A DNA stretch of 30,307 bases from Selenomonadaceae bacterium (GCA_017445435.1 JAFSUE010000158.1:1-30307); one strand, 5' to 3'; positions 2,327-27,948 are shown, counted from the first letter of the stretch. The notes: generated by a model not told the origin, from the sequence alone. Program-made: numbers and translations.

Positions 2327-3619
2327 ATGGAACAACTTAGAAATTATTTTTTATTCGACGAACGCAAAACAAATCTGCGTACAGAAATTTTAGCAGGCGC
2401 AACGACTTTCCTTTCAATGTTGTATATCGTCATAGTAAATCCAACTGTCTTTTCAACGGCGGGAATGGATTTTGGCGGCGTGTACGTTGCAACGATTATT
2501 GCAACGGTAATAGGCACAATGATAATGGGCGTGGCGGCGAATTATCCAATAGCGATAGCGCCAGGCTTAGGCATCAACGCTTATTTAGTTTATTCGGTAA
2601 TGTTATCTCAAGGCGTCGCATGGCAACAAGCACTTGGCGCGGCGGCAGTTGCATCTGGAATTTTTACGCTGTTATCGCTTACACAATTTCGCGAAATGTT
2701 CATTAACTCAATTCCACTTTCGCTGAAAAAATCTATCGCGGCAGGTATCGGCTTATTCATTGCGTTAATTGGTTTTCGTAGCGGTCACATTGTCATTCCT
2801 TCTGACGCAACGATGATAGCTTTCGGCGACCTTGACGATCCAATTTTGCATTTAACGGTTATCGGACTTTTAATCACGATGATTTTAGTTGTGATGAACG
2901 TTAGGGGCGGAATTTTTATCGGCATGATTTGTACGACGTTTTTTGCATGGATATTTGGATATTGGCATTTGCCGCAAGAATTTTTTTCAACGCCGCAAGG
3001 TTTCGACCAAACTTTTATGCAGTTGAGCTTTGACGGTATGCCGTCACTGGCAATGATAATCTTCACGATTTTATTAGTAACGCTTTTCGACACTACTGGA
3101 ACAATGCTCGGCGTCGGTCAACAAGCTGGATTGATTCGCGACGATAAATTTCCCAATTTGAAAAGCGCGTTACTTGCAGACTCAATCGCCAGTTTTGCAG
3201 GCGCATTTGCTGGTACAGGTCCAACATCAAGCTACGTCGAATCTGGAACGGGCGTTGCGGCTGGTGGACGAACGGGCTTTACGTCATTTGTCACGGCATT
3301 TTTATTTTTACTGTTGCTATTCTTTCAACCAATCGCGGCGTCAATCGCATCAATTCCAGCGGCAACATCTCCCGCGTTAATTTTAACAGGTTGCTTTATG
3401 GTCGCTGACGTTGCAAATATTGACTGGAAAGACTACACGGAAGCTTTTCCCTCTTTCTTGACAATGGTTTTAATGCCGTTTACCTACAGCATAACAAACG
3501 GCGTCGGCATTGGAATAATAACTTACGTTATATTGAAAGTTGCAACGCGGCAGTGGCGGCAAATTCATCCGTTGTTGGCGGTTATGGCGATATTATTTTT
3601 AATTCAAATGCTTTACTAA
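2327..3619 (+). CDS. NCS2 family (AzgA/PbuG-like) purine permease
   Basis: RTEILAGATTFLSMLYI, ANYPIAIAPGLG, FDTTGT, YVESGTGVAAGGRTG; polytopic membrane protein. Confidence 0.92.
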   Translation: MEQLRNYFLFDERKTNLRTEILAGATTFLSMLYIVIVNPTVFSTAGMDFGGVYVATIIATVIGTMIMGVAANYPIAIAPGLGINAYLVYSVMLSQGVAWQQALGAAAVASGIFTLLSLTQFREMFINSIPLSLKKSIAAGIGLFIALIGFRSGHIVIPSDATMIAFGDLDDPILHLTVIGLLITMILVVMNVRGGIFIGMICTTFFAWIFGYWHLPQEFFSTPQGFDQTFMQLSFDGMPSLAMIIFTILLVTLFDTTGTMLGVGQQAGLIRDDKFPNLKSALLADSIASFAGAFAGTGPTSSYVESGTGVAAGGRTGFTSFVTAFLFLLLLFFQPIAASIASIPAATSPALILTGCFMVADVANIDWKDYTEAFPSFLTMVLMPFTYSITNGVGIGIITYVILKVATRQWRQIHPLLAVMAILFLIQMLY

Positions 3620-3646
3620 GGTTAAGTGGTAGCGTTTAGGAAATTC

Positions 3647-3676
3647 CTACTCACTACTCACTACTCACTACTGACT
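3647..3676. repeat. Heptamer array (CTACTCA)3-CTACTGA abutting the miaB ATG
   Basis: Read directly. Confidence 0.9.
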
Positions 3677-4996
3677 ATGACAAAAAAATTTAAAATTCTA
3701 ACTTACGGCTGCCAAATGAACGTTGCCGAATCTGAACGTATGGCAGGACAACTTTATAAAATCGGCTACAAATTGACGGACGATATTGCGGCGGCTGACT
3801 TAATTTTAATTAACTCCTGTTGCGTACGCGCTACGGCGGAGGATAAAATTTACGGCAAGATTGGCGAGCTTAACCGCTACAAGTTGCAGAATCCCGCGTT
3901 GATTATCGGCGTTATGGGTTGCCTTGCGCAGAAAGACGGCGACGACTTGATTAAACGTTATCCCAACGTTGACTTCGTATTGGGAACTGCGCGGCGCGGT
4001 GAACTTTCTAACGTTGTGGAAAGTTTTGAATCTGCGCGGAAAAGATTTGTCGACACTTCCAACGTTAGCGGACAAATTATTGAGCCTGAAGTTTTTCCCA
4101 TTCGCACTGGTAAAGTGTCTGCCTTCGTGCCGATTATGTACGGTTGCAACAATTTCTGTACCTATTGCATTGTGCCGTATGTTCGCGGACGTGAAAGAAG
4201 CCGTCCTGCCGCCGAAATTTTCGCCGAAATTAAAAACGCCGTCGATAATGGCTACAAGGAAATAACTTTGTTGGGGCAAAACGTCAACTCTTACGGTAAA
4301 GATTTGCAGGAGATGACCTTTGCAAAACTTTTAGCCGCTGTTGATAAAATTGAAGGGCTTAAACGTCTTCGCTTTATGACTAGCCATCCGAAAGATTTAT
4401 CAGACGAATTAATTGACGTTATGGCGAACGGTAAAAATATTTGTGAACATATTCATCTGCCTGTACAGTACGGTTCAAATAAAATTTTGCAAAAGATGAA
4501 TCGTGTTTACACCGTCGAAAAATATTTTGAGCTTGTCAAAAAAATTCGCGCCGCCATTCCGAATATCAGTTTGACGACTGATTTAATTGTCGGCTTTCCT
4601 GGCGAAACGGAAAAAGATTTTCAGCTGACGTTAGATTTTCTGCGCGAAATTAAATTTGATATGGCATTCACTTTCATTTATTCCGAACGTAGCGGGACGC
4701 CTGCCGCAAATTTTGACGGCAAGGTTGACGACGAAACTAAACACCGCCGCCTTAATGAATTAATGGCGGTACAAAATGAAATTAGCCTTGCGAAAAATTT
4801 ACAGCTGGACGATACGACGGTTGAAGTTTTAGTCGAAGGCGCTAGCAAGACTGACAAAAATATTTTCACTGGTCGGACGCGTACAAATAAATCTGTACTC
4901 TTCCCGCATGGTACGGAAAGTGCTGGCGATTTAATCAACGTGAAAGTTAATCAAGTGCAAACTTGGATTCTGAAAGGCATTCGAGATTTTTTATAA
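3677..4996 (+). CDS. miaB: tRNA 2-methylthio-N6-isopentenyl-A37 methylthiotransferase MiaB (alternative start GTG 3626)
   Basis: TYGCQMN, NSCCVRATAE, GCLAQ, radical SAM motif CNNFCTYC, IVGFPGET, C-terminal TRAM domain (GRTRTNK). Confidence 0.95.
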   Translation: MTKKFKILTYGCQMNVAESERMAGQLYKIGYKLTDDIAAADLILINSCCVRATAEDKIYGKIGELNRYKLQNPALIIGVMGCLAQKDGDDLIKRYPNVDFVLGTARRGELSNVVESFESARKRFVDTSNVSGQIIEPEVFPIRTGKVSAFVPIMYGCNNFCTYCIVPYVRGRERSRPAAEIFAEIKNAVDNGYKEITLLGQNVNSYGKDLQEMTFAKLLAAVDKIEGLKRLRFMTSHPKDLSDELIDVMANGKNICEHIHLPVQYGSNKILQKMNRVYTVEKYFELVKKIRAAIPNISLTTDLIVGFPGETEKDFQLTLDFLREIKFDMAFTFIYSERSGTPAANFDGKVDDETKHRRLNELMAVQNEISLAKNLQLDDTTVEVLVEGASKTDKNIFTGRTRTNKSVLFPHGTESAGDLINVKVNQVQTWILKGIRDFL

Positions 4997-5028
4997 AATG
5001 CGAAATGTAAGGGCATAATGATAAGATG

Positions 5029-5172
5029 GAGTTGAATAACGGACTTAAAGTTCACGTAGGATAGAAAGGGGCGCGCAAGGACGCGCGCCCGCCCGCGCAA
5101 ATCGCGTGATGCGATTTCAGCGGGCATGTTTCTTTTTGCTACTTTTTCTTTGCGCCAAAGAAAAAGTAGTTT
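5029..5172 (+). ncRNA. Candidate structured RNA/REP-like element, copy 1
   Basis: GGGCGCGC-AAGGAC-GCGCGCCC; GCCCGC..AAATCGC-GTGAT-GCGATTT..GCGGGC; perfect 14-bp CTACTTTTTCTTTG-cgc-CAAAGAAAAAGTAG. Homologous to 17352-17550 on the minus strand. Confidence 0.6.
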
Positions 5173-5258
5173 AATTAAAAATTTTTCTAAAAACTTTAAG
5201 TTTACTAACAACCTCTAAAATTTGAACGCTACCATATAAAAATTTGCAGGAATTTCAT

Positions 5259-5294
5259 AACTTGCAGGGAACTGATAACCTTGCAAGTTTTTTT
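5259..5294 (+). terminator. Intrinsic terminator after miaB and the structured element, upstream of the MgtC gene
   Basis: AACTTGCAGGG/CCTTGCAAGTT 11-bp stem (one G-U) followed by a T run. Confidence 0.8.
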
Positions 5295-5335
5295 GTGAAA
5301 ATTTTAAAAGCTTAAAGATAAATGAAGGGATAAAA

Positions 5336-6001
5336 TTGGTTTCAGAGTGGGAACTTTTTTTGAGATTAGCGCTTTCATGCGTTTTAGGCGGCATAATCGG
5401 TTATGAAAGACAGAGCCGTAGAAAATCGGCGGGATTGCGGACAAACGTTTTAGTTTGTCTTGGCTCATGCTTGATAATGGTACTTAGTGAAGCGCTTTAC
5501 TTCAACGTCGAAGGACGTACTAACGCAGACCCTGCACGATTAGCGGCGCAAGTTGTCAGCGGCATCGGCTTTTTAGGCGCAGGCGCGATTATGAAGGAAG
5601 GCTTAACCGTCACAGGTTTAACTACGGCGGCTTGTCTTTGGGTAGTAGCTGGCGTTGGACTTGCAGTAGGCGCAGGCTATTATTCAGGCGCACTTTTCAC
5701 GACGGGATTAATTTTCGCCACGCTTGGAACACTTTCACGCATTGACGAATGGGTTATGCACGACCAAAATTTATATTTAAAAGTTCGTACCCATGACAAG
5801 CCAGGTCAGCTTATGCACATTAGCTCTTGCATTGACGATTTGCAGTTGAAAGTTCGCGGCGTCAAAGTTACGGCTGATGAAAACCACAACGATATTTTGT
5901 GCATTGACTTTGAGGTTTATAACCATCGCGGCTTGAAAGGCGTTATCGTCGTCGACGCGATTAAACGTATTGAAGGCGTCTTAAGCGTTGACGTTAATTA
6001 A
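5336..6001 (+). CDS. MgtC/SapB family membrane protein
   Basis: GGIIGYERQ, SAGLRTN, RLAAQVVSGIGFLGAGAI, GLTTAA; C-terminal ACT-like domain. Confidence 0.93.
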   Translation: MVSEWELFLRLALSCVLGGIIGYERQSRRKSAGLRTNVLVCLGSCLIMVLSEALYFNVEGRTNADPARLAAQVVSGIGFLGAGAIMKEGLTVTGLTTAACLWVVAGVGLAVGAGYYSGALFTTGLIFATLGTLSRIDEWVMHDQNLYLKVRTHDKPGQLMHISSCIDDLQLKVRGVKVTADENHNDILCIDFEVYNHRGLKGVIVVDAIKRIEGVLSVDVN

Positions 6002-6682: not shown

Positions 6683-6724
6683 TTGAATGAAGAATTTTTA
6701 ATTACGCATTACGAATTACGCATT
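6680..6724. repeat. Bipartite heptamer array: TTGAATGAAGAATT then (ATTACGC/ATTACGA)3, spanning both convergent stop codons
   Basis: Read directly. The DAK2 C-terminus MRNS* is encoded by the array. Confidence 0.8.
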
Positions 6725-7947
6725 ATGTTTGCGTTTTCAAGAGCTGAAAAGCCTGCCGAAAATTTTTTCAAGGCGGCTACAGCGTCATTAAAAGATTCAG
6801 TCAAAACTAATTCAACGCGACTTCCCAAAAGTCTTTTAGCTTGCCGAAAAATTAATTTGTAATCGTCACTCGACGAAACTAAAACGTAGCTTGACGCTAA
6901 ATCCGAATGCGCCGCGCCAACAATTTCCGATACCGATGGCGAAGATTCTTCACTGCCAGAAACTAAAATTGACGCGCCAGCATCTTGCAAAATTTGCGCT
7001 TCAGCCGCATTTCTAGCTACTGCAAGCGCCGCAACTTTCATCAACGCATCATGCGCGGGGAGTTGATGACTTTCGCTCATATTCGTAATTTTCACGTCGT
7101 GCAAAGGTCCCCAGCCCAACGCTTGATCAATCGCATTGCCAACGTGATCTGTGTGTAAGTGAATATCCAGCGTACCGCTTGACCGTTCGACGATTGAAAA
7201 ACTGCTGAAATCTTTCATACGCTGTTCAACTTCATAAATATTCGCCTTAGAATTTTTCACGCGAAGACGTACGCAGTACGGTCGAACTCTATCGTTGCGC
7301 GGGTCAGGCATATTTTTATGAATGCCTAAGCCCAACGATAAACTTACGGCGGGCGATACAAAATTTCCGTCAAGACCTTTCAAGCAACCTTTCAAAAAGC
7401 TGAACATAATGTGTGCGCCAGCGTCATTGTGTCCATTTTTTTCGACGGCATCTTCACCCGCTTTAATCGCCGTAGATAAAATTTCTGAAATTGGTTTGCC
7501 GTCACGAACTGCGCGGTAAGCACCTTTAGCAACTGCCTTTGCAACAAATATGAATGGGCTGTCATGATTTTCAGGCATAACACGTTGGGAATACAAAATG
7601 CCATACTGAAAAGCCTTGCCAAATTCAGAGCCAGTAGCTTCGTATTTGCCAATTAAACCAGTAGCAATTCCGTGAAACATTTGCGCCAAAACTACGCCAG
7701 CATTTCCGCGAGCACCAAATACAGCCGCCGTTGCAACACGTCTACTCAAGCCGCCTAAGCTGTCGTCTTTAGCTTCTGTCAATGGCATAACCGCCGCGCC
7801 TATCGTTCGCAAAATGTGTGTACCAGGCAAAGTTCCCGCGCCTGTCTGCGAATTTATATTTTCATATTCTAATAAAAATTCGCTGTACGCGCCTGAAATC
7901 ATTCTCTTGAAATCTCCACCAGTTATAACTTCTCTACTGCCCGTCAT
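6709..7947 (-). CDS. DAK2-domain/fatty-acid-kinase FakA-like protein, degenerate and shortened (412 aa)
   Basis: GARGNAGVVLAQMFHG, PYC, DIHLHTD, VKITNMSESH. Start reassigned to ATG 7947 behind a GGTGGTGA RBS. Confidence 0.8.
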   Translation of the reverse strand: MTGSREVITGGDFKRMISGAYSEFLLEYENINSQTGAGTLPGTHILRTIGAAVMPLTEAKDDSLGGLSRRVATAAVFGARGNAGVVLAQMFHGIATGLIGKYEATGSEFGKAFQYGILYSQRVMPENHDSPFIFVAKAVAKGAYRAVRDGKPISEILSTAIKAGEDAVEKNGHNDAGAHIMFSFLKGCLKGLDGNFVSPAVSLSLGLGIHKNMPDPRNDRVRPYCVRLRVKNSKANIYEVEQRMKDFSSFSIVERSSGTLDIHLHTDHVGNAIDQALGWGPLHDVKITNMSESHQLPAHDALMKVAALAVARNAAEAQILQDAGASILVSGSEESSPSVSEIVGAAHSDLASSYVLVSSSDDYKLIFRQAKRLLGSRVELVLTESFNDAVAALKKFSAGFSALENANIMRNS

Positions 7948-13470: not shown

Positions 13471-14502
13471 TTGAGGACTGGCAAAATAAAAAAAATTTCA
13501 GCGTGTTACATCGTGAAGAATGAAGCTGAAAGGTTAGCACTGTCTTTAAAAAATCTGCGCGGCATTGACGAAATTATAATTGTCGACACTGGCTCAACTG
13601 ATAACACGTTGGAAGTTGCAAAAAAATTTGGCGCAAAAATTTTTTGTACGAATTGGGCTGACGATTTTTCCACGCCGAGAAATTTAGCGTTGAGTCAAGC
13701 AACTGGCGATTGGATAATTTTTTTAGATGCGGACGAATATTTTACGGCGGCGACGGCTGATAATCTTCGTAGCGTGATTGAAAGTATTGACGCTACGGCG
13801 GCGAACGGACTTTTAATTTATCTTGTCAACATTGACACGGCGGACGGCGATAAAATTTTAGATACGACCTTCGTATTGCGGATTTACAGGAATTTGAACG
13901 GGCTAGCGTACGTTGGAAAAATTCATGAGGAATTGCGGCTTGACGGAAAAAGTTTGACAAATATAATTCCGTTACCGCCGAAATTTTTAACGCTGAATCA
14001 TACAGGCTATTCCGCGACGTTAAATAAGATGAAGGCGGCGCGAAATTTAAAGTTGCTGTTGGAAGAATTGGCGCAGACGAATGAACCGCAAAGAATTTAC
14101 GGCTATATTGCGCAGTGCTATAATGGGCTAGAAGATTTTATCAACGCGGAAAAATTTGCTAAGCTTGACATTGAATCGGGCGTACGGCGTTCAACTTTTT
14201 CTAGCAGTTCGTATAGAATTTTGCTGGATATTTTGTCGAAGGATTCAACGCGGCTTGAGGAGCGAAAAAATTTTGCTATGATGGCGGCTGAAGATTTTCC
14301 CGACTTGCCAGACTTTTTAGCGGAGCTAGCGGAATGTTACGCCGCGCAGAAAAATTTTGAGGCGGCAATAATTTTAATGACGGGTGCACTTGAAAATTTT
14401 GCAAAGTACGACGGCATTGAGCCTTCCATTTTCGACGAAGTACGGGCAAATTTGGCGCGTCAACGTATAAAAATTTGGACGCGTGAATTTATAAAGAATT
14501 AA
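13471..14502 (+). CDS. GT2 glycosyltransferase with TPR-like C-terminus (type often linked to flagellin/protein glycosylation)
   Basis: ISACYIVKNE, IIIVDTGSTD, W.DDFS..RN, WIIFLDADE, GKIHE, HTGY. Confidence 0.88.
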   Translation: MRTGKIKKISACYIVKNEAERLALSLKNLRGIDEIIIVDTGSTDNTLEVAKKFGAKIFCTNWADDFSTPRNLALSQATGDWIIFLDADEYFTAATADNLRSVIESIDATAANGLLIYLVNIDTADGDKILDTTFVLRIYRNLNGLAYVGKIHEELRLDGKSLTNIIPLPPKFLTLNHTGYSATLNKMKAARNLKLLLEELAQTNEPQRIYGYIAQCYNGLEDFINAEKFAKLDIESGVRRSTFSSSSYRILLDILSKDSTRLEERKNFAMMAAEDFPDLPDFLAELAECYAAQKNFEAAIILMTGALENFAKYDGIEPSIFDEVRANLARQRIKIWTREFIKN

Positions 14503-14528
14503 GAATTGAGAATTAAAAATTAAGAATT
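14494..14528 (+). repeat. Heptamer array (AAGAATT)5, degenerate, containing the GT2 stop codon
   Basis: aagaatt aagaatt gagaatt aaaaatt aagaatt. Confidence 0.85.
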
Positions 14529-14544
14529 TTTTGAGGTGAAAGAC

Positions 14545-15945
14545 TTGAAAACTAAAACTTACGTTGAAGATATTGAAAGGGCGCTTTATGATATTCGCGA
14601 CGCCGACGAATCAATTTATAAATCTGACGCAGGCTTGACTGAAGAAATTATCCGTGACATTTCTGCGCGGAAAAATGATCCAGCGTGGATGTTGGACTTT
14701 CGCTTAAAGGCGCTTGAAACGTATAAAAAAATTTCCCTGCCAACGTGGGGACCTGACATTTCAAATTTGAATATGGATGAAATTGTAACCTACGTCAAGC
14801 CCAACGCTAAGCAAGTTTCTGATTGGTCTGAAGTTCCTGACGAAATTAAAAATACTTTTGACAGGCTGGGAATTCCAGAGGCTGAAAAAAAATCTTTAGC
14901 TGGCGTCGGTGCGCAGTATGATTCAGAAGTCGTCTACCACAACATACAAAAAAATTTGACAAGTCAAGGCGTCGTCTATACCGATATGGAAACGGCACTT
15001 CGTGAACATGAAGATATTGTCCGTGAATATTTTATGACGCTCATTCCGCCGAAAGATCATAAATTCGCAGCACTGCATGGCGCGGTATGGTCGGGCGGAA
15101 GTTTTGTTTACGTACCGAAAAATGTTAATGTGGAAATTCCATTGCAATCTTACTTTCGACTCAACGCGGCAGGCGCTGGACAATTTGAACACACGCTGAT
15201 AATTGTTGAGGAAGGCGCGAATTTACATTTCATTGAAGGTTGTAGCGCCCCAAAATATAACGTCACAAATTTACATGCAGGTTGCGTTGAACTTTTCGTG
15301 AAGGAAGGAGCGCGGCTTAGATATTCGACGATTGAAAATTGGTCACGAAATATGATGAATTTAAATACAAAACGTGCGCTTGTCGAAAAAAACGGCTTGA
15401 TTGAATGGGTAAGCGGTTCTTTCGGTTCGCACGTTTCAATGTTATATCCTTGTAGCGTTTTGCACGGCGAAGGTGCACGCGCTGAATTTACTGGCGTAAC
15501 TTTCGCTGGCAAAGGTCAAAATCTTGATACAGGCGCGATTGTCATTCACGCGGCGCCAAAAACTTCGTCGAACATTAACACGCGGACAATTTCAAAATCA
15601 GGTGGCGCGGCTACGTACCGTTCAGCCGTCAAAGTTACGAAAAATGCGCCGTTCGCTAAATCGTCTGTCAACTGTGAATCACTTATGCTTGACGACGAAT
15701 CAAGATCGGACACGTTGCCTGTAATGGATATTGAAGGCGCGGAAGCTGATATTGGACACGAAGCTAAGATTGGAAGAATTTCCGACGAAGCAATTTTCTA
15801 TTTAACTGCGCGGGGAATTTCTGAAGACGAAGCACGCGCAATGATTGTACGCGGATTTGTTGAGCCGATAGCTAAAGAATTGCCGCTTGAATACGCCGTT
15901 GAGATGAACAATTTAATTTCAATCGAACTTGAAGGCGCTAATTGA
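14545..15945 (+). CDS. sufB: Fe-S cluster assembly scaffold SufB (TTG start preferred over GTG 14536)
   Basis: LAGVGAQYDSE, WSGGSF, GQFEHTLII, FIEGCSAP, LHAGCVE, IGHEAKIG, MIVRGF. Confidence 0.95.
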   Translation: MKTKTYVEDIERALYDIRDADESIYKSDAGLTEEIIRDISARKNDPAWMLDFRLKALETYKKISLPTWGPDISNLNMDEIVTYVKPNAKQVSDWSEVPDEIKNTFDRLGIPEAEKKSLAGVGAQYDSEVVYHNIQKNLTSQGVVYTDMETALREHEDIVREYFMTLIPPKDHKFAALHGAVWSGGSFVYVPKNVNVEIPLQSYFRLNAAGAGQFEHTLIIVEEGANLHFIEGCSAPKYNVTNLHAGCVELFVKEGARLRYSTIENWSRNMMNLNTKRALVEKNGLIEWVSGSFGSHVSMLYPCSVLHGEGARAEFTGVTFAGKGQNLDTGAIVIHAAPKTSSNINTRTISKSGGAATYRSAVKVTKNAPFAKSSVNCESLMLDDESRSDTLPVMDIEGAEADIGHEAKIGRISDEAIFYLTARGISEDEARAMIVRGFVEPIAKELPLEYAVEMNNLISIELEGAN

Positions 15946-15978
15946 ATTAAGAATTAAAAATTAAGAATGTAGAATTTT
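15944..15978 (+). repeat. Heptamer array (GAATTAA)-type, 5 units, between convergent genes
   Basis: gaattaa gaattaa aaattaa gaatgta gaatttt. Confidence 0.85.
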
Positions 15979-17300: not shown

Positions 17301-17351
17301 TTTGTTGTTAGCGGCGTATTGATTAAGTGGATTTTCTATTTTAATTTTTTT

Positions 17352-17550
17352 TTAAACTACTTTCTTTTGGCGCAAAAGAAAGTAGCAAAGAAAACATAGC
17401 GGCATTTGCGCGCTCGCGCTTTACTTTTCAGTAACAAAAGCAATACACCGCGTCCTTGTGTTCCCAAATATTCAACTCCGCAGAGCGCCATAAATGCCGC
17501 AAAGTACCATCATTTTTCAGCTTTGAATTTTTTACGTAGTTATTCAACTC
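17352..17550 (-). ncRNA. Candidate structured RNA/REP-like element, copy 2
   Basis: The minus strand carries GAGTTGAATAAC, CAAGGACGCG, GCGCAAAT and CTACTTTCTTTTG-cgc-CAAAAGAAAGTAG, as in copy 1. It adds GCGGCATTT/AAATGCCGC, GCGCTC/GAGCGC and TTACT-GAAA-AGTAA stems. Confidence 0.6.
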
Positions 17551-17588
17551 TACCTAATTACTAACACCTAGAAAGGAGCGTGAAATTT

Positions 17589-17864
17589 TTGGATAAGAAA
17601 AAAATTGTTCATTCTGCCCGTGAAAAAATTCGTGAACAGGATAATTCCTCAAGTGGTCGTGAAGCAGTTAGCGGCGAAAAATCACTTTTGGGCGACGTGA
17701 TTGGTGCGTTTATAAATATGGTTGGCGATACGTCAAATGATTCTGCTGATAATGAATCTGCGCGGGAAAGTGGACGTAGCGGCAAAACTTCAGGACGTAA
17801 GCCGCAAGGTCAAGGGCGCGTTGCATCTGTTGGAAGTCGTGTTGCCGAACAACTCAAAAAATAA
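17589..17864 (+). CDS. Hypothetical Ser/Gly/Arg-rich small protein (TTG start; alternative GTG 17580)
   Basis: AAGGAG RBS 10 nt upstream; open frame of about 91 aa. Confidence 0.65.
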   Translation: MDKKKIVHSAREKIREQDNSSSGREAVSGEKSLLGDVIGAFINMVGDTSNDSADNESARESGRSGKTSGRKPQGQGRVASVGSRVAEQLKK

Positions 17865-18030
17865 TTAGGAATGCGTAATTCGTAATGCGTAATGATAAAT
17901 CTTACCACCTACTCACTACTGACTACTAACTAAAAAAAGATTGATAATTAGTAAGGCGGTATGTTAAGAATTAAGAATTAAGAATTTTTCCCTACTCACT
18001 ACTAACTACTCACTACTAACTACTTACTAA
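17862..18030. repeat. Composite heptamer region: TAATGCG-type (17862-17893), CTACTNA (17909-17931), TAAGAAT x3 (17965-17986), CTACTNA x5 (17992-18030)
   Basis: Read directly. Confidence 0.9.
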
Positions 18031-18038
18031 AAAAATAA

Positions 18039-18068
18039 TTGATAATTGGCAAGGCGTTATGTTATAAT
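18039..18068 (+). promoter_or_regulatory. Sigma70 promoter of the TAXI gene
   Basis: TTGATA-18 nt-TATAAT with extended -10 TG; AGGAGG RBS downstream. Confidence 0.7.
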
Positions 18069-19074: not shown

Positions 19075-19080
19075 TTTATT

Positions 19081-19148
19081 TAATGCGTAATTAGGAATGC
19101 GTAATTCGTAAATTAATGCGTAATGCGCAATGAGGAATGCGTAATTAA
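19081..19148 (+). repeat. Heptamer array TAATGCG/TAATTAG/GAATGCG/TAATTCG, 9 units
   Basis: Read directly; one 5-nt phase slip at 19109-19113. Confidence 0.88.
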
Positions 19149-19155
19149 AATTTTT

Positions 19156-19181
19156 AGCCTCCCAATCAGGGGGCTTTTTTT
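19156..19181 (+). terminator. Intrinsic terminator after the TAXI gene
   Basis: AGCCTCC/GGGGGCT stem followed by T7. Confidence 0.75.
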
Positions 19182-21395: not shown

Positions 21396-21461
21396 ATTAG
21401 CTTTTAGCTTTTAGGATTTTTTACTACTCACTACTAACTACTGACTACTCACTACTCACTA
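21396..21461. repeat. Bipartite heptamer array: (TTTTAGC/G)-type then (CTACTNA)5, in the fliF-fliG spacer
   Basis: Read directly. Confidence 0.88.
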
Positions 21462-21533
21462 ATTTTTAGAAATTTAATAGGAGCTGGAACTGCTATAAGA
21501 ATTTTTAATTCTAAGTTCCTAGCCCCTAAAAAA

Positions 21534-24213: not shown

Positions 24214-24232
24214 ACTTTTCACCTATTTTAGC

Positions 24233-24277
24233 TTGAATTAATTCTTAATTCTTCATTCTTAATTCTTAATTCAATTA
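24233..24277 (-). repeat. Heptamer array (GAATTAA-type on the minus strand) directly after the flgB stop
   Basis: ttgaatta attctta attcttc attctta attctta attcaa tta. Confidence 0.88.
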
Positions 24278-24700
24278 GCTTTGTCCGCTGGTAATGGCAG
24301 TACGAACTTTGTTTACGTGACCGCGCAGTTGAGTTGCCAACGCATTGTAATACATCTGATTTTTCAAAAGCGTTGCCATTTCAATATCAATATCAACGTT
24401 GTTATTGTCTTCGCGCATAATCGTTGTATTGTCCTCAACCATTGTCGGCACGGCGTGAACAGGTTTATTAACCGCTGGCAAGTGCGCATCATTTGTACGA
24501 ACCATTTGCAATTTGTTGCCTGTATCTTCGCCGTAAATTTCCTTAGCTAAAAGTTCCTCAAACTCAACAGCAGTTTTACGGTAATTCGGCGTGTTGACGT
24601 TAGCAATGTTGTGGGAAATGACTTCCTGCCGCATGGTCGCCGCCGTCATGCCACGCGCCAAGTAATTAAAATTTGGTGAGTTCAATATTTGTTCAAGCAT
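24275..24700 (-). CDS. flgB: Flagellar basal-body rod protein FlgB
   Basis: RQEVISHNIANVNTPNY, DNNNVDIDIEM. Confidence 0.96.
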   Translation of the reverse strand: MLEQILNSPNFNYLARGMTAATMRQEVISHNIANVNTPNYRKTAVEFEELLAKEIYGEDTGNKLQMVRTNDAHLPAVNKPVHAVPTMVEDNTTIMREDNNNVDIDIEMATLLKNQMYYNALATQLRGHVNKVRTAITSGQS

Positions 24701-26110: not shown

Positions 26111-26122
26111 CTCCCCTTTTTT

Positions 26123-26157
26123 TAATTAGGAATTCTTAATGCGTAATGCGTAATGTA
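26123..26157 (+). repeat. Heptamer array TAATTAG-GAATTCT-(TAATGCG)2-TAATGTA
   Basis: Read directly. Confidence 0.8.
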
Positions 26158-26160
26158 AAA

Positions 26161-27087
26161 CTAAACTTCCCTAACGTCATTTTTCATTAAGTCACGGTGT
26201 TCAAGGTTGACGGCGTAACCTTTTTTCTTCAACAGCTCAAAAATATGTTTCGCAATGAAAACGCTACGGTGCATTCCGCCAGTACAGCCGACAGCTAGCA
26301 CAAGTTGACTTTTGCCCTCACGAACATATTGCGGCGTTAAAAATTCTATCATTGGATCAAGCCGCTTTAAAAATTCCTGCGTGACAGGCTTTTCTGCAAT
26401 GTACGCGGCAACTTCAGGAACTGCTCCGCTTTTATGGCGCATTGACTCAATGTAAAATGGATTCGGCAAAAATCTAACGTCCAACACCAAGTCAGCGTCA
26501 AGCGGCATTCCATACTTAAAGCCGAAAGATAACACAGAAATATTCATTTCGTCGCCTTCATGAATACCGAAAAGCCGCCGAATTTTTTCGCGTAAATCAG
26601 CTTTCGTCAAGTTCGACGTGTCAATAATATAAGTAGCCTTGCCGCGTACAGATTCAAGCCGTGCCCGTTCCTTTGCAACGCCGTCAGAAATTCTAGTAGA
26701 AGGCGCCATTGGATGACTTCTGCGCGTCTCTTTGTAACGGCGAATAATCGTATCGTCTGAAGCGTCCATAAAAATTAATTCGTAGTCGCGGTCATTTTTA
26801 TCCATATCTTCAAGCACTTGTAAAAGCGTGTCGAAAAATTCACGGCTGCGCGTATCGACGACAAAGACAACGTGACTAACGCTGTTTACTGCATGTGCGC
26901 AAAGTTCCACGAACTTAGGAATTAAAATTGGCGGCAGATTGTCTACGCAAAAATATCCTAAGTCTTCAAGGAAACGGCAAGCTTGAGTTTTGCCGCTACC
27001 GCTCATGCCAGTCACGATGATAATTCGCGGCTTGTCTAAAAGTTTATCGTTGCCATCAACGTTTAAAGTTTTCGTGTCTGTTTCCAT
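26161..27087 (-). CDS. rapZ: RNase adapter / P-loop NTPase RapZ (YvcJ)
   Basis: VTGMSGSGKT, GYFCVDNLP, RYKETRRSHP, SFGFKYG, DVRFLPNP, GCTGGMHRSV. Confidence 0.96.
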   Translation of the reverse strand: METDTKTLNVDGNDKLLDKPRIIIVTGMSGSGKTQACRFLEDLGYFCVDNLPPILIPKFVELCAHAVNSVSHVVFVVDTRSREFFDTLLQVLEDMDKNDRDYELIFMDASDDTIIRRYKETRRSHPMAPSTRISDGVAKERARLESVRGKATYIIDTSNLTKADLREKIRRLFGIHEGDEMNISVLSFGFKYGMPLDADLVLDVRFLPNPFYIESMRHKSGAVPEVAAYIAEKPVTQEFLKRLDPMIEFLTPQYVREGKSQLVLAVGCTGGMHRSVFIAKHIFELLKKKGYAVNLEHRDLMKNDVREV

Positions 27088-27100
27088 AACTCACCCCATG

Positions 27101-27205
27101 TTGAATTAAGAATTTAGAATGTAGAATTAAGAATTAAGGATGATACTACTAACTACTGACTACTAACTACTGACTACTAACTACTAACTTCAAATTAAGA
27201 ATTAA
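27101..27205. repeat. Bipartite heptamer array: GAATTAA-type x5 (27103-27137), CTACTAA/CTACTGA x6 (27146-27187), AAATTAAGAATTAA over the cobJ stop
   Basis: Read directly. Confidence 0.92.
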
Positions 27206-27948
27206 AAGTTGTAACCGCGCGGCGTAACCATAAAATTTGACTTGACGAAAGTTTTTGAATTGCCAATTAAAACTAGCGTGAACATATTTATTTCTTCGCG
27301 TGTAAAATCTTTCAACGTCGAAATAACTTTTCGTTCATCAAGACGCCCAGCATTCGTGACGATACCGACGGGCGTATTTTCTGCGCGGAAGTTCAACAAA
27401 ATTTTCTGCACTTCGTCAATGTACGTGACGCGGCTTTTACTTTTCGGATTGAACAACGCAATTACAAAGTCACCTTCCGCCGCCAATGCCACGCGCTTTT
27501 TAATCAGTTCGTAAGGCGTCAGCCAATCACTTAAGCTGATAACGGCGAAGTCGTGCATAAGTGGAGCGCCGAGAATTGCCGCCGCTGAATTTAGCGCAGA
27601 TACGCCAGCCGCAACTTCAAATTTTGGTTGAAGATTTTCTGGCAAGTTCAAAATCATTTCGATTAAAAGTCCCGCCATACCGTAAATGCCAGCGTCGCCG
27701 CTTGAAATTACTGCCACGTTCAAATTTTTTTGCGCCTCATCAATGGCAACTTGTGCGCGTTGAACTTCCTGCCGCATGCCCGACGCCAAAATTTTTTTGC
27801 CTGCCGTCAATTCGCCAATCAATTCAATGTACGTTTTGTAGCCGACAATCACATCTGCCGCGTCAATAAGCGCCCTAGCTTTAGGCGTCATTTCATCAAG
27901 GTTGCCTGGTCCAATGCCGACGACTGAAATTTTTCCGCAATTATTCAT
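27202..27948 (-). CDS. cobJ: Precorrin-3B C17-methyltransferase CobJ/CbiH
   Basis: VVGIGPG, IVGYKTY, SSGDAGIYGMAG, LGAPLMHDF..ISLSD, LYNP-like LFNPKS, FMVTPRGY. Confidence 0.93.
   Translation of the reverse strand: MNNCGKISVVGIGPGNLDEMTPKARALIDAADVIVGYKTYIELIGELTAGKKILASGMRQEVQRAQVAIDEAQKNLNVAVISSGDAGIYGMAGLLIEMILNLPENLQPKFEVAAGVSALNSAAAILGAPLMHDFAVISLSDWLTPYELIKKRVALAAEGDFVIALFNPKSKSRVTYIDEVQKILLNFRAENTPVGIVTNAGRLDERKVISTLKDFTREEINMFTLVLIGNSKTFVKSNFMVTPRGYNF

Follow-up and report, generated by a model that had tools for sequence, protein, structure and literature searches.

Covarying hairpins, a mirror repeat and a transposon-like shell in a multicopy element downstream of miaB in a rumen Selenomonadaceae genome

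Introduction

What do three consecutive hairpins do between a miaB gene and its terminator? This question is raised by positions 5029-5172 of a 30,307-nucleotide contig of a Selenomonadaceae bacterium (GCA_017445435.1, JAFSUE010000158.1:1-30307), the whole of which was analyzed here and is referred to below as the window. An earlier note on this DNA reported the hairpins, found the same ordered blocks on the opposite strand at 17352-17550, and proposed a multicopy family of small RNAs or transposon-like repeats that might resemble the TwoAYGGAY RNA motif and be linked to a RAYT/TnpA-Y1 transposase. We describe below a dispersed family whose structured core covaries between species, lies preferentially at gene 3' ends and contains a mirror repeat of unusual regularity. 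The element combines a TwoAYGGAY-like RNA, a miniature inverted-repeat transposable element (MITE) that duplicates TA and an intrastrand triplex motif, all of which are of known kinds; a triple helix at bacterial 3' ends is an unusual hypothesis. We lean, with no great assurance, towards reading the element as a mobile, non-autonomous structure module of 3' untranslated regions (3' UTRs) that would have an RNA-level role at the 3' end of the upstream message.

Results

Three hairpins in the 3' UTR of miaB

The window is contig C2 of a rumen Selenomonadaceae metagenome-assembled genome (MAG), here called G000, which comprises 2.08 Mb in 345 contigs, is 80.7% complete and has 40.9% GC. Upstream of the first copy of the element (copy 1), the open reading frame (ORF) at 3626-4996 has the domain set of a MiaB-type enzyme (UPF0004, Radical_SAM and TRAM), and the downstream ORF at 5336-6001 belongs to the MgtC family. 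Given that a 10-bp hairpin followed by U7 lies further downstream (Table 1), copy 1 is located in sense within the miaB 3' UTR, after the stop codon and ahead of miaB's own terminator, which is where the earlier note had placed it. The three hairpins were confirmed both by direct reading and by folding: the minimum free energy structure of 5066-5171 predicted with RNAfold consists of exactly these hairpins at -58.7 kcal/mol, compared to -34.9 +/- 3.5 kcal/mol for dinucleotide shuffles (z -6.8; 0/200 as good). When 5022-5220 was folded, the ends of the unit also paired (-76.5 kcal/mol, z -7.5). The extent first given for the element, 5029-5172, proved too narrow, as the entire repeat unit reaches beyond it on both sides (Table 1). 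An 86-aa ORF on the minus strand (4951-5211) crosses the element; with about 150 occurrences of the repeat in non-coding contexts, this ORF is most likely spurious.

Covariation of the core across species

For comparisons between species we used a covariance model, R1, of 103 positions and 34 pairs, which was built from 13 cores of several species with a hand-given structure and model-based realignment. It was used instead of a MAFFT alignment of 38 cores, in which hairpin 1 was misregistered and RNAalifold missed hairpin 1. R1 identified the ~105-nt core in 67 of the 76 species of the genus, many genomes having at least 52 copies, and in 6 of 40 sampled genera of the family, where the carriers include near-complete genomes in few contigs. 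Genera g20 and g53 comprise near-complete genomes in 8-70 contigs, possibly of isolates.

Realignment of 75 matches (71 distinct) to R1 gave standard pairs in 97.5% of the cells, versus 72.4% with partners shuffled and 43-51% with the pairing slid by 1-3 columns, and changes on both sides in 30 of the 34 pairs, with a covariation score that was reached by 0 of 500 shuffles; these figures are not probabilities, since the alignment was made to fit R1 and the copies share ancestry, but the raw sequences plainly agree with them. In hairpin 1, seven of the eight pairs were changed on both sides (stem variants GGCGCGC/GCGCGCC, GGCCGTCA/TGACGGCC, GCGCCCC/GGGGCGC and others), and the loop keeps A-N-GGA-Y across species. 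Hairpin 2 showed compensatory changes in all six outer pairs and in six of the seven inner ones, where the variants AAATCGC, CATTCGC, GCTCACA, AAGCGAC and TTGAAACA are each accompanied by the exact complement; its loop in the relatives is YGGAY or GUGAY. Compensatory variants such as CAAC/GTTG, CTTC/GAAG and TTAC/GTAA were also found in 11 of the 13 pairs of hairpin 3. Judged from these changes, the core structure is under selection, and the covariation for which the earlier note had looked to related genomes is strong. Mismatches are rare; G.U exceeds A.C by 12 to 1 in the forward orientation when one doubtful terminal pair is excluded, which hints weakly at reading of the forward strand as RNA.

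A mirror repeat with the layout of an intrastrand triplex

The stretch that ends the core has the layout S1-G-CTAC-S2-G..C-S3-GTAG, in which the U-rich tract S1 is the mirror image of S2, not its complement, and is parallel-complementary to S3 (T to A and C to G). Of 182 oriented sites, 163 obeyed this rule. It held across six variants distinguished by block length or by the position of the single C (T counts around C in S1/S2: 4-C-3/3-C-4, 3-C-5/5-C-3, 4-C-4, 4-C-5/5-C-4, 3-C-4/4-C-3 and 3-C-3), and four more variant classes (11 sites) fit it if a 2-nt joint is allowed. In G000, 58 of the 61 intact hairpin-3 loci obey it, never on both strands. Ordinary mutation yields direct or inverted repeats, not mirror repeats. 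The order of S1, S2 and S3 corresponds to a parallel Hoogsteen strand, a Watson-Crick pyrimidine block and a purine block, and this is the arrangement that a pyrimidine-motif intrastrand triplex needs (U.A-U triples with one C+.G-C). At three loci we noticed a variant core (Table 1) whose base helix of hairpin 3 is CCAGCG...TGCTG or GCCAGGCG..., with a T-rich loop, and which still keeps the S1/S2 mirror.

A multicopy family with a MITE shell

In G000 the family comprises 170 matches, 150 of them non-overlapping at E<1e-5 (BLASTN and iterated nhmmer), which are copies or fragments. The multicopy family suspected from the window alone is thus real, and so is its transposon-like nature. Alignment of 55 full-length copies with their flanks revealed sharp ends and 17-bp terminal inverted repeats (TIRs), TAGGTGGTGTTGAATAA ... 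TTATTCAACACGACCTA, with the consensus present at both ends in 41 of the 55. Nearly all copies start and finish with TA in the context YTAR. Many intergenic regions are filled by strict heptamer tandem arrays (ACTACTN, GAATTAA, AATGCGT), ten of which lie in the window (Table 1), and MITE copies insert into such arrays at TA. In all six copies that lie inside such arrays, the 7-nt phase was best restored by retaining exactly one TA (6-9 of 9 positions matching, versus 0-5 for 0, 1, 3 or 4 nt); TA is therefore the target-site duplication. With 17-bp TIRs and a TA duplication, the copies in G000 are MITEs, i.e., non-autonomous elements of ~190-250 nt that insert at TA and duplicate it. The ends of copy 1 are decayed: AAGATGGAGTTGAATAA at the 5' end agrees with the TIR consensus at 14 of 17 positions, TTTACTAACAACCTCTA at the 3' end at just 9 of 17, and the left end is AA instead of TA.

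At least two subfamilies occur in G000, type A (as copy 1; roughly 15-25 copies) and type B, the majority form, which is represented in the window by the second copy (copy 2). They have the ends, the U-rich tract and hairpin 3 in common. Copies 1 and 2 accordingly share TIRs, S1 and hairpin 3; it is the 5' structured domain that sets them apart, and a MAFFT alignment of the two was poor. The ordered blocks that the earlier note saw on opposite strands of the window do occur once per copy and in the same order (Table 1). Hairpin 3 of copy 2 lies at 17357-17385, where the mirror S1 is present on the minus strand only.

The core has a much wider distribution than the shell. The TIR is multicopy in just 5 of the 76 species of the genus, while hairpin 3 and the type A core recur alone, usually without TIRs, in many other species. 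The repeated unit in the near-complete genome G006, for example, is ~113 nt long with sharp ends and no inverted repeats. All subfamilies and species examined had the hairpin 3 module, which is conserved in sequence. The core predates the MITE shell and far exceeds it in distribution; the shell is found in one subclade only.

No empty sites were obtained for either copy of the window: miaB and the MgtC-family gene are not adjacent in other species, the contigs of the closest relative break at the element, and of the two flanks of copy 2 just the left one is conserved. One orthologous locus is polymorphic for the element, with a full type A copy in G000, hairpin 3 and the tail only in the closest relative, G011, and nothing in G075; divergence there is too high for the duplication to be read. 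Comparison of G011:C224 ~1690-1765 (L199) with L009 1474-1572 showed that G011 lacks hairpins 1-2 and S1 and retains hairpin 3 with an A/T-rich tail. The 99-nt difference suggests a deletion, because it is bordered by the T-rich microhomology TTTTCAA/TTTTCTTTTG. In several copies (Table 1), a heptamer array stands in place of the interior that is bounded by hairpin 1 or the 5' domain on one side and the 3' arm of hairpin 3 on the other, and the arrays seem to grow inside the elements or to recombine with them. On contig C97 a 421-aa coiled-coil ORF lies between two half-elements.

Position relative to genes

The copies prefer gene 3' ends and are mostly sense to the upstream gene. Long ORFs are overlapped by just 6 of the 150 copies in G000, where 60 copies are sense and 19 antisense to the genes in co-directional gaps, with 24 more in convergent gaps and 14 in divergent ones. 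Among type A copies of other species, 28 of 68 are located in convergent and 5 of 68 in divergent gaps, and a copy there is often 0-20 nt from both stop codons, making up the whole intergenic region. The 5' flanks are A-rich (44% A), and in 20 of 63 copies five or more of the 8 nt ahead of hairpin 1 are A. On the minus strand, hairpin 1 of copy 1 is followed by CTTTCTATCC and was flagged as terminator-like. Hairpin 3 was considered as a terminator and rejected, because its 3' flank is A-rich and not U-rich.

Relation to TwoAYGGAY and other Rfam families

At gathering thresholds Rfam had no match in the entire window. Permissive scans of both window copies returned only chance-level miRNA and sRNA matches, with no TwoAYGGAY (RF01731) at E<=10, and 15 related loci gave only unrelated HEARO, RAGATH-18 and tRNA matches. 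At the element itself there was no match to Clostridiales-1 or HEARO, two families that had been named as candidates, and one copy in G023 matched rsmX at E 1.1 and not TwoAYGGAY. Rfam clan CL00106 holds both TwoAYGGAY and rsmX. In a direct search with RF01731, the top score in the whole of G000 (22.4 bits) fell on a type A copy (G000:C42), and copies in G054 and G023 scored 22-28 bits, short of the gathering threshold of 43. Aligned to the model, hairpin 1 and the two-part hairpin 2 fall on its two AYGGAY hairpins. Most positions of the model's long outer stem (Rfam 15) are deleted or unpaired, and in G000 the MITE ends pair instead. Loops in the relatives are AUGGAU, ACGGAU, AUGGAC and CAGGAU/CGGAU, while those of copy 1, AAGGAC and GUGAU, are neither strictly AYGGAY. 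The likeness suggested in the earlier note therefore holds for the two hairpins and their rank in the genome and fails at the family threshold: the core appears as a sub-threshold relative or analogue of TwoAYGGAY and is not a member by the Rfam test. The HEARO match (RF02033, the IscB-associated omega RNA; 138 bits, L133 5421-5638, plus strand) and the RAGATH-18 match (RF03064; 67.8 bits, L129 43-104, plus strand) are in related MAGs, the former in a Selenomonadaceae MAG and unrelated to the element.

Candidate transposases

The proposed link to a RAYT/TnpA-Y1 enzyme found no support. Y1/RAYT transposases (PF01797) occur in 7 of 61 genomes and are absent from copy-rich ones such as G006, G010 and G023, so that their presence does not track the element. 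G000 itself has the N-terminal half of an IS200/IS605-type Y1 transposase (G000:C218 5-175, minus strand; L043), which is truncated where the contig stops. The small GC hairpin upstream of this gene, CCCCCTGC...GTGGGGATG, has no relation to the repeat family. As possible ends of an autonomous element, TIR pairs spaced 300-4000 bp were inspected. The pair on C97 turned out to be the two half-elements around the coiled-coil gene and those on C135 and C324 are unrelated pairs; the sole TIR pairs more than 300 bp apart border ordinary genes. IS630-type DDE_3 genes are sporadic in the genus (G013 with 16 matches, G003, G089, G078, G057 and G063), and several of them contain in-frame TGA stops.

Table 1. 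Features of the element and associated repeats. Positions refer to the window unless a contig or locus is named.
Feature	Position	Strand	Description
Entire repeat unit, copy 1	~5023-5217	+	MITE with decayed ends; type A core inside
Structured core, copy 1	5066-5171	+	Three hairpins and U-rich tract; R1 111.5 bits, E 1.4e-22
Hairpin 1	5069-5076 with 5083-5090	+	8-bp GC stem GGGCGCGC/GCGCGCCC; loop AAGGAC, 5077-5082
Hairpin 2	5091-5125	+	Outer 6 bp (5091-5096 with 5120-5125), inner 7 bp (5099-5105 with 5111-5117); loop GUGAU, 5106-5110
S1, U-rich tract	5129-5137	+	TTTCTTTTT; mirror of 5' arm of hairpin 3, candidate Hoogsteen strand; also U-tract after hairpin 2
Hairpin 3	5139-5169	+	Perfect 14-bp AT-rich stem CTACTTTTTCTTTG/CAAAGAAAAAGTAG (5139-5152 with 5156-5169); loop CGC; layout CTAC-S2-G / C-S3-GTAG
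S2	5143-5151	+	TTTTTCTTT; pyrimidine block, 5' arm of hairpin 3
S3	5157-5165	+	AAAGAAAAA; purine block, 3' arm of hairpin 3
Intrinsic-terminator-like hairpin, outside element	5260-5295	+	10 bp, then U7; fold of 5250-5300 -17 kcal/mol, z -4.6
Copy 2, type B	17309-17556	-	Top nhmmer match of family; TIRs TAGGTAGAGTTGAATAA and CACTTAATCAATACGCCGCTA
Shared block GAGTTGAATAAC	5029 (copy 1); 17550 (copy 2)	+; -	
Shared block CAAGGACGCG	5076 (copy 1); 17458 (copy 2)	+; -	
Shared block GCGCAAAT	5095 (copy 1); 17411 (copy 2)	+; -	
Shared block TTTGCTACTTT	5135 (copy 1); 17389 (copy 2)	+; -	
Shared block TTTGCGCCAAA	5149 (copy 1); 17376 (copy 2)	+; -	
Shared block AAAGTAGTTTAA	5163 (copy 1); 17363 (copy 2)	+; -	
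TIR end string of family			GGTGGTGTTGAATAA
Variant core	L116 2122-2226	-	
Variant core	L149 111-238		
Variant core	G000:C280 8163-8272		
Array-replaced copies	G000:C97 (L031 858-1000, 2460-2550)		
Array-replaced copy	G000:C290 ~3263-3400		
Array-replaced copies	L022; L024		
Heptamer arrays, first five	3635-3697, 6685-6725, 14489-14541, 15937-15978, 17849-18049		
Heptamer arrays, other five	19075-19156, 21396-21481, 24227-24279, 26112-26165, 27101-27210		

Discussion

A proposed structure module at message 3' ends

Four parts make up the cargo of the element: first a GC hairpin whose loop is A-N-GGA-Y, then a GC hairpin in two parts whose loop is YGGAY or GUGAY, followed by S1 and by the AT-rich S2/S3 hairpin. 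Copy 1 would be transcribed along with miaB, since it lies in sense in the miaB 3' UTR ahead of the terminator. Hairpin 2 with S1 resembles an intrinsic terminator and could end the upstream message. In transcripts that read through, S1, S2 and S3 would close into a hairpin capped by a triple helix of U.A-U and C+.G-C triples, which may stabilize the message by blocking 3'-5' exonucleases, and the GGA loops are candidate protein-binding sites. The boldest form of the proposal is that S1-CUAC-S2-loop-S3-GUAG forms an RNA triple helix in vivo, as a bacterial counterpart of the ENE/MALAT1 3'-end elements that a mobile element has carried through rumen Selenomonadaceae and that is coupled with a protein-binding domain of the TwoAYGGAY type. 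We put this forward tentatively, as an idea that the mirror rule invites and that we would doubt sooner than expect to hold.

Several observations weigh against a transcribed 3'-end module. Both strands fold equally well (-58.7 vs. -58.6 kcal/mol) and the stems are almost purely Watson-Crick, so that a hairpin or triplex may instead exist at the DNA level. An efficient stop at hairpin 2 plus S1 would leave S2 and S3 untranscribed, which places the terminator and triplex ideas in tension. With an ordinary terminator after copy 1, miaB does not need the element, and copy 2 is antisense to both of its flanking ORFs. Only about a third of the copies have a 5' flank fit for termination in the reverse direction. 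Mobility raises further difficulties: most species carry the core without inverted repeats, which leaves its spread there unexplained. IS630-family elements duplicate TA. Neither DDE_3 (PF13358) nor HTH_Tnp_IS630 (PF01710) was found in the five TIR-bearing MAGs (G000, G011, G045, G059 and G075), although at 69-83% completeness the absence of a transposase does not follow, and the IS630-like genes of G013, G003 and others in the genus were rejected as partners, their ends being different.

Alternative explanations

The main rival explanation, which we judge unlikely though it deserves to be taken seriously, is that the element acts only as DNA, with hairpins and mirror repeat serving transposition or non-B structures (intrastrand or H-DNA triplexes, cruciforms) and the RNA fold as a by-product. 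Proposals of this kind exist likewise for REP/BIME and for bacterial intrastrand triplex motifs. The equal fold energies of the two strands, the 2291 Watson-Crick cells against 12 G.U and the homopyrimidine mirror repeat with a 5-nt spacer, a classical H-DNA layout, are all consistent with it, as are the assemblies that break at the element, the many truncated or rearranged copies, and the ties of triplex motifs to genome instability (Holder et al., 2015; PMC4666352). A purely DNA-level element would not, however, be expected to lie in sense to the upstream gene, to favor G.U over A.C in the forward orientation, or to keep GGA in the loops while the stems vary, which is typical of RNA-protein recognition; nor does an enzyme of the Y1/RAYT type track it. 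Rather less likely to us is a dispersed cassette of intrinsic terminators, in which hairpin 2 plus S1 would act forward, minus-strand hairpin 1 with a T-run from the A-rich 5' flank would act in reverse, and the triplex layout would be incidental. Such a cassette would account for the copies that fill convergent gaps so tightly that no room is left for another terminator, for their scarcity in divergent gaps, for the GC-closed stem that always ends 1-3 nt before S1, and for the A-rich 5' flanks and the terminator-like minus-strand hairpin 1. It gives no reason why the sequence of S2/S3 is conserved across genera or why it tracks S1 through six variants, and it sits poorly with the A-run being present before hairpin 1 in only 20 of 63 copies, the A-rich tail after hairpin 3 and the separate terminator kept in the window.

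That the copies are free-standing small RNA genes with promoters of their own, for instance of the Csr/Rsm kind that titrates CsrA, seems to us highly improbable. Two GGA-loop hairpins at a spacing suited to a dimer, the clan shared by TwoAYGGAY and rsmX, the weak second-best rsmX match on one copy, and csrA-type genes in G000 and all carrier genera would agree with it. Yet there is no conserved upstream promoter, 5' flanks differ between copies, copies abut stop codons and number 50 to >150 per genome, and the hairpin 2 loop in G000 is mostly GUGAU and not GGA. CsrA is encoded in 115 of 141 genomes of the family regardless of the element, and its presence is therefore uninformative. Most of the family have one CsrA-family gene, and the genomes of genus g53 (G127, G153, G171, G187, G199, G208, G215 and G221) have two each.

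Significance

TwoAYGGAY has been an orphan since 2010, and its relative described here occurs at 50 to >150 copies per genome, with sequence variation that pins down the fold, in many species, some of them represented by near-complete genomes in few contigs that may come from cultured isolates. Through three-way mirror covariation, a U.A-U triple helix at the 3' ends of bacterial mRNAs becomes a testable hypothesis; if it were true, hundreds of genes would have been given a portable module of 3'-end protection and regulation. A transposon shell that carries the structured module in one subclade only offers a clean case for the capture and spread of non-coding cargo. The repeats also account for much of the fragmentation of these MAGs, and rumen genome catalogues should mask or annotate them.

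Comparison with known systems

TwoAYGGAY was reported from the human gut, gamma-Proteobacteria and Clostridiales as a motif of unknown function that is "probably RNA, not cis-regulatory" (Weinberg et al., 2010; PMC2864571). The element resembles it in having a simple and then a two-part GC-rich hairpin side by side, with conserved loops of the YGGAY type. It differs in that the outer stem is unmatched, that the loops in G000 are AAGGAC and GUGAU, that S1 and the hairpin 3 mirror module align only to unpaired or outer-stem positions, and that the taxa reported in 2010 did not include Selenomonadaceae (PMC2864571). Intrastrand triplex motifs are highly abundant and conserved in bacterial genomes and are tied to genome instability (Holder et al., 2015; PMC4666352). 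Like the TMECO and BoxC motifs of that study, the element has three consecutive blocks on one strand, is multicopy and conserved, and is tied to rearranged loci. TMECO, however, is a G/C-rich purine-motif triplex studied as DNA, whereas the present element is of the pyrimidine motif (T.A-T and C+.G-C) in Py-Py-Pu order and is accompanied by a covarying, RNA-like domain and a gene-sense bias (PMC4666352).

With TA-duplicating MITEs the copies in G000 share a length of 190-260 nt, 17-bp TIRs, TA duplication in the YTAR context, high copy number, intergenic location in both orientations and many decayed copies. They differ from them in having structured cargo that is multicopy in 60-odd species without inverted repeats, and in that neither G000 nor the related MAGs yielded a partner transposase with matching ends. 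REP/BIME of Enterobacteria are high-copy palindromes at gene 3' ends and in convergent gaps, for which protection of mRNA from 3' exonucleases has been proposed. The element is like them in this placement, in its mosaic or modular make-up, in a CTAC...GTAG motif at the base of hairpin 3 and in the proposed shielding of upstream mRNA. It is unlike them in being ~105 nt long with three different hairpins, compared to a GC-rich palindrome of 20-40 nt, and in not being tracked by Y1/RAYT enzymes, which are confined to 7 of 61 genomes.

In eukaryotic and viral RNAs, 3' ends are known to be protected by triple helices (the ENE of PAN and MALAT1, and transposon RNAs); we know of no bacterial example of the ENE type. 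ENE elements clamp poly(A) or a genomically encoded A-tract. What the element has in common with them is the strand order of U-rich, U-rich and A-rich, a single C+.G-C among the predicted U.A-U triples, and a predicted position at the 3' end of the transcript.

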